Below, one piece after another: positions 40,698 through 42,277 of a stretch of DNA of 64,000 bases. Made by a program: the position numbers and the translations under genes. Origin of the DNA: Escherichia phage A6-6. Under the pieces are notes generated by a model that was not told the DNA's origin, did not search any database, and worked only from the letters and a program-made list of their open reading frames with translations. Position 1 is the first letter of the stretch. Each line of letters starts with the position of its first letter. The stretch lies in the sequence record PQ510734.1. One strand, written 5' to 3'.

Positions 40698-41438
40698 ATG
40701 ATTAGTGACTCTATGACAGTTGAAGAAATCCGTCTTCATTTGGGGCTTGCATTAAAAGAAAAAGATTTCGTAGTTGATAAAACCGGTGTTAAAACTATTG
40801 AAATTATTGGCGCATCATTTGTAGCAGATGAACCGTTTATTTTTGGCGCTCTTAATGATGAATACATTCAGCGCGAACTTGAATGGTATAAATCTAAGAG
40901 CTTGTTTGTTAAAGATATTCCAGGTGAAACACCAAAGATTTGGCAGCAGGTAGCATCTTCTAAAGGCGAAATTAACTCGAATTATGGTTGGGCTATTTGG
41001 TCAGAAGATAACTATGCCCAGTATGATATGTGTTTAGCTGAACTTGGTCAAAATCCTGATTCTCGACGTGGTATCATGATTTATACTCGTCCATCCATGC
41101 AATTTGACTACAATAAAGATGGTATGTCAGATTTCATGTGTACTAATACAGTACAGTACCTGATTCGTGATAAGAAAGTCAATGCAGTAGTAAGCATGCG
41201 CTCAAATGACGTGGTCTTCGGATTCCGTAATGATTATGCATGGCAAAAATACGTATTAGATAAATTGGTATCTGATTTGAATGCAGGCGATTCAACTCGT
41301 CAGTATAAAGCAGGTTCTATTATATGGAATGTCGGAAGTCTTCATGTATATTCTCGTCATTTTTACTTGGTTGATCATTGGTGGAATACTGGCGAAACTC
41401 ATATTGTGAAAAAAGACTATAAAGGTGAGTGGAAATGA
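40698..41438 (+). CDS. 42: dCMP hydroxymethylase gp42
   Basis: 246 aa, thymidylate-synthase-like fold. Confidence 0.95.
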   Translation: MISDSMTVEEIRLHLGLALKEKDFVVDKTGVKTIEIIGASFVADEPFIFGALNDEYIQRELEWYKSKSLFVKDIPGETPKIWQQVASSKGEINSNYGWAIWSEDNYAQYDMCLAELGQNPDSRRGIMIYTRPSMQFDYNKDGMSDFMCTNTVQYLIRDKKVNAVVSMRSNDVVFGFRNDYAWQKYVLDKLVSDLNAGDSTRQYKAGSIIWNVGSLHVYSRHFYLVDHWWNTGETHIVKKDYKGEWK

Positions 41439-42277
41439 TTCAATTCGTAATTCCAAGTTATCAGCGTGTCGGGGCAGTTTCTGCCCTTGATATGTTTCCG
41501 ACTGATTATGAACCCCATATTGTAGTGCGTGAACATGAAGAAAAAGCTTATTATGATGCCTATGGGTCTAGAGCTAAAATTATAACTATTCCTGATGATG
41601 TAAATGGAATTGCTGGTACTCGTAAAGCAATTACTGATATGTATGCAGGTCAACGAATTTGGATGATTGATGATGATACTACTATTCGTATGAGTTCAAT
41701 GCGAAAGAAAGATGATCGTCGCTGCGTAGATAAAATTAATCAATTAACTCGTGAACAGTTCTATGAATTGATTCAATACGTTGAAGATGCCATGGATTGC
41801 GGGTATTATCATGGTCATGCTCGTTTACCAATTTTTAAAATTACTTCATCTTGGGGTAATTATCGTGAAAATTCATATGGATTCACGAATACTTGGTATG
41901 ACCTCGGGAAACTTACAACAGAACAAATTGGGTATGGAAAAATTGATTTATGCGAAGATATGTATGCATTTCTCAATTTAATTAATCAAGGTTATCCGCA
42001 TTTGGCCTTGTTCAAATATCTGGTTGTATCTGGAAAAGCACAGGCTCCAGGCGGATGTAGTTCAATTCGTAGTAATTCAAAACATAATAGAGCTCTTGAG
42101 CAAATCAATAGAGAGTTTCCAGAGCAAGCTCGTTGGAAAACATCGAATATTGAAAAGAGAAAATCGTTGGGTGAAGAAGACGAGCCATTAAAGGTTCTTC
42201 GCATGTGTGTTTCGCGCAAAGAAAAATCAGAAGCGTTTCATAAGTTTAATGCTATTCATCCAATAGCAGTTGATTAA
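41435..42277 (+). CDS. putative hmC-DNA glycosyltransferase at the beta-gt locus (T2/T6-type beta-glucosyl-HMC-alpha-glucosyltransferase candidate)
   Basis: 280 aa from ATG 41435 (ATGA coupling to 42); does not match recalled T4 beta-gt (351 aa, MKIAIINMGNN...); same position between 42 and uvsX; DDD motif. Confidence 0.55.
   Translation: MIQFVIPSYQRVGAVSALDMFPTDYEPHIVVREHEEKAYYDAYGSRAKIITIPDDVNGIAGTRKAITDMYAGQRIWMIDDDTTIRMSSMRKKDDRRCVDKINQLTREQFYELIQYVEDAMDCGYYHGHARLPIFKITSSWGNYRENSYGFTNTWYDLGKLTTEQIGYGKIDLCEDMYAFLNLINQGYPHLALFKYLVVSGKAQAPGGCSSIRSNSKHNRALEQINREFPEQARWKTSNIEKRKSLGEEDEPLKVLRMCVSRKEKSEAFHKFNAIHPIAVD

Follow-up and report, generated by a model that had tools for sequence, protein, structure and literature searches.

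The 280-aa protein encoded at 41435-42277 in Escherichia phage A6-6 is very probably an orthologue of the T2/T6 beta-glucosyl-HMC-alpha-glucosyltransferase (ba-gt, also ggt; TAGT) and, through the inferred pathway set out below, would yield gentiobiosyl-hmC. The analysis covered a stretch of 64,000 nucleotides from sequence record PQ510734.1, hereafter the window. An enzyme of this type had been guessed from position in a sequence-only reading of the same DNA, and the guess is borne out by identity to the T2 protein at 276 of 280 residues (98.6%) and to the T6 protein at approximately 275 of 280 (~98%, both T6 records). The features on which the argument draws are as follows.

28623-29825, plus strand: alpha-gt, which makes the acceptor alpha-glucosyl-hmC; 91% identity to T4 alpha-gt over all 400 aa
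40698-41438, plus strand: gene 42, dCMP hydroxymethylase, which makes hm-dCMP; 97% identity to T4 gp42, Pfam Thymidylat_synt
41423-41429, plus strand: Shine-Dalgarno-like AGGTGAG, 5 nt ahead of the ba-gt ATG, read directly from the sequence
41435-41438, plus strand: ATGA, in which the ba-gt start codon overlaps the gene 42 stop codon, from the sequence and orthologue annotations
41435-42277, plus strand: ba-gt (ggt, TAGT) coding sequence, from the open reading frame, PHROG 842, Pfam PF20691, T2/T6 identity and the GT-A fold
41453-41467, plus strand: PSYQR, codons P7-R11, corresponding to the nucleotide-binding 'PTYNR' loop of GT2; R11 is invariant in the family
41669-41677, plus strand: DXD motif, codons D79-D80-D81, at the end of strand 74-78; putative metal and UDP-sugar site
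41954-41959, plus strand: 'ED' motif, codons E174-D175, at the start of helix 174-184; putative catalytic base by GT2 analogy
47997-48515, plus strand: gene 56, dCTPase/dUTPase, which bars unmodified dCTP from phage DNA; 74% by tblastn, full-length T4 gp56

Reading frame and start codon

The gene runs on the plus strand from an ATG at 41435 to a TAA ending at 42277, a coding sequence of 843 nt between gene 42 and uvsX; the coordinates, length and neighbours first given for it were all exact. The program-made list of open reading frames opens this frame at an in-frame GTG at 41429, two codons before the ATG. We set aside the GTG as a start and consider ATG 41435 the likelier one, because of the spacing of the AGGTGAG sequence, the ATGA overlap and the uniformity of the orthologues: an identical 843-nt coding sequence with the same 4-nt overlap is annotated in T2, EL, Geo, BGP and QOTSP, that is, in every annotated orthologue compared. 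The overlap points to translational coupling, so that ba-gt is probably translated jointly with gene 42.

The frame is under strong purifying selection. Against five relatives whose protein sequence differs from that of the window (T2, T6, QOTSP, EL and teqskov), divergence is 16-22% for synonymous and 0.5-1.3% for non-synonymous change; a pN/pS of 0.02-0.06 despite so much synonymous change shows that this is not a chance open reading frame. Antisense open reading frames of 54-78 aa across ba-gt were also considered and set aside as short, unsupported and opposite a strongly constrained coding frame.

Family membership and relatives

The protein matches PHROG 842, 'beta-glucosyl-HMC-alpha-glucosyltransferase', along its whole length (E = 5.6e-89), and Pfam PF20691 (TAGT, TET-associated glycosyltransferase) with 38.8 bits against a gathering cutoff of 27.5, spanning profile positions 2-205 of 205. 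From window to T2 the substitutions are R11H, K92R, I101V and P251S; from window to T6 they are Y40N, D55G, K92R, I101V and R106H. Three residues separate it from the QOTSP protein and eight from those of EL, Geo and BGP, and the independent isolates ZCEC15 and UFV05 encode an identical protein. In the small sample compared, K92 was common only to the window and ZCEC15. On these sequence comparisons the relation to T2 and T6 is one of orthology, going beyond family resemblance.

Among 50,697 phage records searched by tblastn, 689 were matched by ba-gt. At least 90% identity was seen in 472 of these, every one a tequatrovirus-like phage infecting Escherichia, Shigella, Yersinia or a similar host, and roughly 200 further matches, at 60-80% identity, came from phages of Klebsiella, Enterobacter, Salmonella and Citrobacter. 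Many tequatroviruses likewise show 97-98% DNA identity to the 10-kb neighbourhood of the gene.

Records of the reference phages differ within this gene. His11 is found in all T2 records, namely PV648364 (codon at 2531-2533 of the excerpted locus), LC348380, MH751506, AP018813, NC_054931, PV958097, PV648363 and SV76; Arg11 is found in the window, T6, QOTSP, EL, Geo and BGP, and in T2's nearest relatives (teqskov, Bas44 and 303Ecol101PP). Two T6 records carry different lesions in ggt. Codon 10 of T6 MH550421 (4951-4953 of the excerpted locus, minus strand) is TAG and CAG elsewhere, which points to a mutant stock or else to an error of sequencing; the annotation by the depositors accordingly begins at Met20 and gives 261 aa, a product that would be without the first strand and R11. 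T6 NC_054907 / AP018814 has an intact codon 10 but has lost 3 nt from its GAT-GAT-GAT tract (approximately 854-862 of the excerpted locus), which reduces DDD to DD and the protein to 279 aa. The protein of NC_054907, YP_010067197.1, served as the TAGT query in PMC13216743.

Fold and conserved residues

The sequence-only reading had called for a glycosyltransferase-fold prediction, and the structure model gives such a fold with high confidence, of GT-A type and with a DXD motif. Every family-invariant residue is present in the full-length protein. R11 is invariant in TAGT alignments of 49 and 103 sequences; across the 103 family representatives D80 and D175 are also invariant, and D79 and D81 are at least 90% conserved.

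Searches of PDB sequences with the protein and with the TAGT family profile returned nothing significant and no experimental structure of any member. The sole sequence bridge to GT2 enzymes is a weak match of the family profile (E = 0.08) to 9jma_A, in which PSYQR aligns to IPTYNR and DDD to DDDD, and residue roles are for these reasons assigned by analogy. On that analogy ba-gt would be a small single-domain GT-A enzyme in which DDD (79-81) holds a metal and the diphosphate of the UDP-sugar, PSYQR (7-11) holds the nucleotide and D175 serves as catalytic base. It would be an inverting enzyme, because a beta bond is formed from UDP-alpha-glucose.

The modified-DNA pathway

The acceptor-making set of gp42, gp56 and alpha-gt is present and beta-gt is absent within the 64-kb window, as in T2 and T6. 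In the proposed pathway, gp42 and gp56 would cause the phage DNA to be built with 5-hydroxymethylcytosine; after replication, alpha-gt would attach one alpha-linked glucose to some three in four hmC residues; and ba-gt would then transfer a second glucose from UDP-glucose, beta-linked to the 6-OH of the first, to give gentiobiosyl-hmC.

T2 and T6 are without beta-gt; their alpha-gt glucosylates ~75% of hmC, a second transferase adds beta-1,6 glucose onto the alpha-glucose to form gentiobiosyl-hmC, and the gentiobiosyl share of hmC is 5% in T2 and 72% in T6 (PMC6024577; bioRxiv 10.64898/2026.02.25.707755; PMC13216743). Deletion of ba-gt from T6 leaves only alpha-glucosyl-hmC and increases sensitivity to the Brig1 glycosylase (PMC11078745), and BapA frees glucose from T6 delta-g-gt DNA, whereas the DNA of wild-type T6 gives up none (bioRxiv 10.64898/2026.02.25.707755). 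The Durham tequatroviruses, which possess alpha-gt and TAGT and are without beta-gt, were found by LC-MS to contain hmdC, alpha-glucosyl-hmdC and alpha-gentiobiosyl-hmdC, and no beta-glucosyl-hmdC (PMC13390438).

Orthology, fold, conserved motifs and partner genes are established for the window's own ba-gt. The product, and its dependence on ba-gt, would carry over from near-identical phages, and UDP-glucose transfer by this allele is predicted. The earlier proposal that gentiobiosyl-hmC replaces the mixed alpha/beta monoglucosylation of T4 thus appears well supported, by analogy with LC-MS of phages whose enzymes are 98-99% identical.

The extent of diglucosylation

The presence of ba-gt alone does not set the doubly glucosylated share, as near-identical enzymes yield between 5% (T2) and 72% (T6). 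In EL, Geo and BGP the ratio of hmdC to alpha-glucosyl to gentiobiosyl forms is ~1:2:2, or ~40% gentiobiosyl, and in QOTSP and six others approximately one third is hmdC and two thirds (~67%) gentiobiosyl (PMC13390438). Our guess from the sequence is that the share in the window phage would be T6-like, amounting to a majority of glucosylated sites.

The same enzyme could instead be weak, as in T2, giving a few per cent of gentiobiosyl-hmC in DNA that is mostly alpha-monoglucosylated with ~25% bare hmC. The T2 gene, 98.6% identical, sets the precedent for this, and the intermediate position of EL, Geo and BGP (PMC13390438) also speaks for it. We nevertheless consider a weak enzyme unlikely. A high, T6/QOTSP-like share is favored by three points, which fall short of proof. 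Arginine occupies position 11 in the window, as it does in the 103 family representatives and in all copies examined other than T2's, which has H11. By residue comparison the window protein comes nearest to the QOTSP type, at three substitutions from a phage whose DNA is about two-thirds gentiobiosyl. The window is also without dam, as is the QOTSP group, a link to high gentiobiosyl share that is only correlative; a Dam-like gene was noted only in the intermediate 1:2:2 Durham group (PMC13390438). As a predictor of the ratio, shared substitutions are suggestive only: the window protein has I101 in common with the 1:2:2 group, and with the high-gentiobiosyl group it has positions 50, 89, 95, 97, 202 and 203 in common.

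It is tempting to speculate that alleles of ba-gt themselves set the level of double glucosylation, with R11H being hypomorphic in T2 and accounting for 5% there against 72% in T6, such that a phage with R11, like that of the window, would be predicted to be T6-like. We advance this tentatively and hold it to be possible rather than probable. His11 could be the cause of the ~5% gentiobiosyl-hmC of T2; were this so, a single substitution in the nucleotide-binding loop would explain the long-known difference in gentiobiosylation between T2 and T6.

Alternative functions

A TAGT of other specificity, using another donor sugar or acting on bare hmC, would make a product other than gentiobiosyl-hmC. 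In its favor, the family is large, with 2146 clusters at 50% identity (E <= 1e-3), and diverse in function; members are found beside beta-gt or without any primary glycosyltransferase, and in the view of the authors of PMC13216743 there may be distinct kinds of TAGT. Such a departure is very improbable for a protein 98-99% identical to the enzymes of phages whose DNA has been measured, and it is partnered here by alpha-gt, the arrangement of T2 and T6. The gp42 of the window, moreover, is at 97% the T4 hydroxymethylase, whereas the arabinosylating Mosigvirus phages use a 5-hydroxy-dCMP synthase (PMC13390438).

It is even less probable that ba-gt is an inactive remnant or an unexpressed gene. 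Database copies from laboratory phages are indeed damaged, by TAG at codon 10 in T6 MH550421 and by loss of one Asp of DDD in T6 NC_054907. The window gene, however, is full length with all invariant residues, has a good ribosome-binding site and coupling to gene 42, is under strong purifying selection and encodes a protein that recurs exactly in independent isolates.

A highly diverged T4-type beta-gt, placing a single beta-glucose directly on hmC, is favored by position only (in T4 the beta-gt gene is syntenic, lying between genes 42 and uvsX) and has a negligible chance of being correct, given that BLASTP against T4 beta-gt returns no sequence similarity (best E = 3.4, over 8 residues), that the protein has 280 rather than 351 aa, that its predicted fold is GT-A with DXD whereas T4 alpha-gt and beta-gt are GT-B (PMC13216743), and that beta-glucosyl-hmdC was not found in relatives carrying ba-gt (PMC13390438). 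The model consists of a single alpha/beta domain rather than the two domains of a GT-B fold, a Pfam search of the protein gave no match to the T4 beta-gt family (PF09198) at E <= 1, and tblastn of T4 beta-gt across the 64-kb window gave nothing below E = 1, so none has been relocated within it. The initial impression that the protein is unlike T4 beta-gt was hence correct; the two outcomes named in advance as decisive against a T2/T6-type enzyme, T4 beta-gt identity and absence of a glycosyltransferase fold, were both looked for, with the result that there is no identity and the fold is predicted with high confidence. A diverged beta-gt is thereby excluded, as far as sequence and modelled fold can judge, in favor of the T2/T6-type ba-gt.

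Neighbourhood and regulatory signals

Downstream of ba-gt lies uvsX (42355-43536), with ~90% identity to T4 UvsX and Pfam matches to T4_UVSX_C and RecA. In T4, segA sits between beta-gt and uvsX; tblastn found none of the T4 homing-endonuclease genes segA, segF, mobB and mobC at the T4-syntenic sites in the window. There is likewise no tblastn match to dam in the window, and the interval from the end of gene 61 (47728) to the start of gene 56 (~47997) leaves no room for it. Most neighbouring genes are 95-100% identical to T4 at the protein level, uvsX and alpha-gt are intermediate at ~90%, and nrdG (23810-24280), gene 56 (47997-48515) and mrh (49836-50318) are at 74-81%. This mosaic pattern suggests recombination with more distant relatives.

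A promoter scan of 40400-42500 gave 13 promoter-like sites against 9.8 +/- 2.7 expected, with no separate ba-gt promoter signal above chance. A terminator scan of the same interval gave one terminator-like hairpin against 1.0 expected, again nothing above chance, and an Rfam scan of the whole window found no family at gathering score. The hairpin, GGGGCAG-TTT-CTGCCCT with a T-rich tail at 41471-41497, lies on the coding strand 36 nt inside the ba-gt coding sequence and is probably meaningless, being the one site expected by chance. By eye, the 77-nt gap between ba-gt and uvsX holds TGTTATAAT, an extended -10 with TATAAT at 42296-42301, and ahead of it TGCCTAA at 42278-42284, 11 nt upstream of the TATAAT. 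The arrangement is similar to a MotA-dependent middle promoter of T4, one that would drive uvsX; the sigma-70 scan omitted it because it has no -35 hexamer.

Significance

A ba-gt at the gene 42/uvsX site is already known, being textbook T-even biology and ordinary among T4 relatives. Twelve sequenced RB phages possess alpha-gt together with ba-gt (PMC6024577), and among 753 phage genomes with such transferases alpha-gt is combined with beta-gt in only 6, T4 and its close kin (PMC13216743). T4 is therefore the exception and alpha-gt with ba-gt the norm (PMC13216743); the earlier comparison, based on T4, used the exception. What is mildly new concerns the reference phages and not the window, namely R11H in T2 and the two distinct lesions in T6 records.

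The pattern of sugars on hmC decides which host defences detect a phage. Gentiobiosyl-hmC is resistant to Brig1 in vitro and is not stripped by BapA, and alpha-monoglucosyl-hmC is open to both; GmrSD/BrxU-type enzymes still cleave gentiobiosyl-hmC DNA (PMC11078745; bioRxiv 10.64898/2026.02.25.707755; PMC13390438; PMC13216743). With alpha-gt and ba-gt present and beta-gt not, one can reasonably predict the host range of the phage in the face of such defences, as well as the behaviour of its DNA with restriction enzymes and sequencing chemistries.

Comparison with known systems

Inverting GT-A enzymes of GT2-like type (the AvpGT beta-1,3-glucosyltransferase 9jma, TarS/TarP and SpsA) are only 6-16% identical to the window ba-gt. 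Their targets are lipid-linked glycans, teichoic acids and polysaccharides, whereas that of ba-gt is a sugar carried by DNA. At its C terminus ba-gt has ~70 residues, basic and of lower pLDDT, that are without counterpart in these enzymes and may contact DNA.

The DNA arabinosyltransferases of Mosigvirus (RB69-type) phages are set apart by genomic context and description. Arabinosylation there involves a 5-hydroxy-dCMP synthase and a gene cluster for the arabinose precursor, and not alpha-gt (PMC13390438); the window instead has a T4-like gp42 and alpha-gt. T4 beta-gt (PF09198; PDB 1JG7) occupies the same genomic slot as ba-gt, and the two have UDP-glucose as donor, the beta linkage and post-replicative action on phage DNA in common. 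They differ in fold and length (GT-B and 351 aa against GT-A and 280 aa) and in acceptor, since T4 beta-gt glucosylates hmC itself and ba-gt extends an existing alpha-glucose.

The TAGT homologues of CC31, S16, Moon and PKO111, from phages of Klebsiella, Enterobacter, Salmonella and Citrobacter, are 64-66% identical to the window ba-gt, adjoin gene 42 as it does and have a near-identical predicted structure (TM 0.95). The partner of the homologue in CC31 and Moon is a beta-gt homologue instead of alpha-gt (PMC6024577), and because of this different partner their acceptor and product may differ from those of the window.

The closest likeness is to T2 and T6 themselves, whose ba-gt resembles that of the window in its 280 aa, its place between gene 42 and uvsX, its ATGA overlap, its alpha-gt, gene 42 and gene 56 partners and its predicted GT-A fold. 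The window retains the family consensus, from which T2 departs by H11, one T6 record by an amber codon at position 10 and the other T6 record by the loss of one Asp from DDD.
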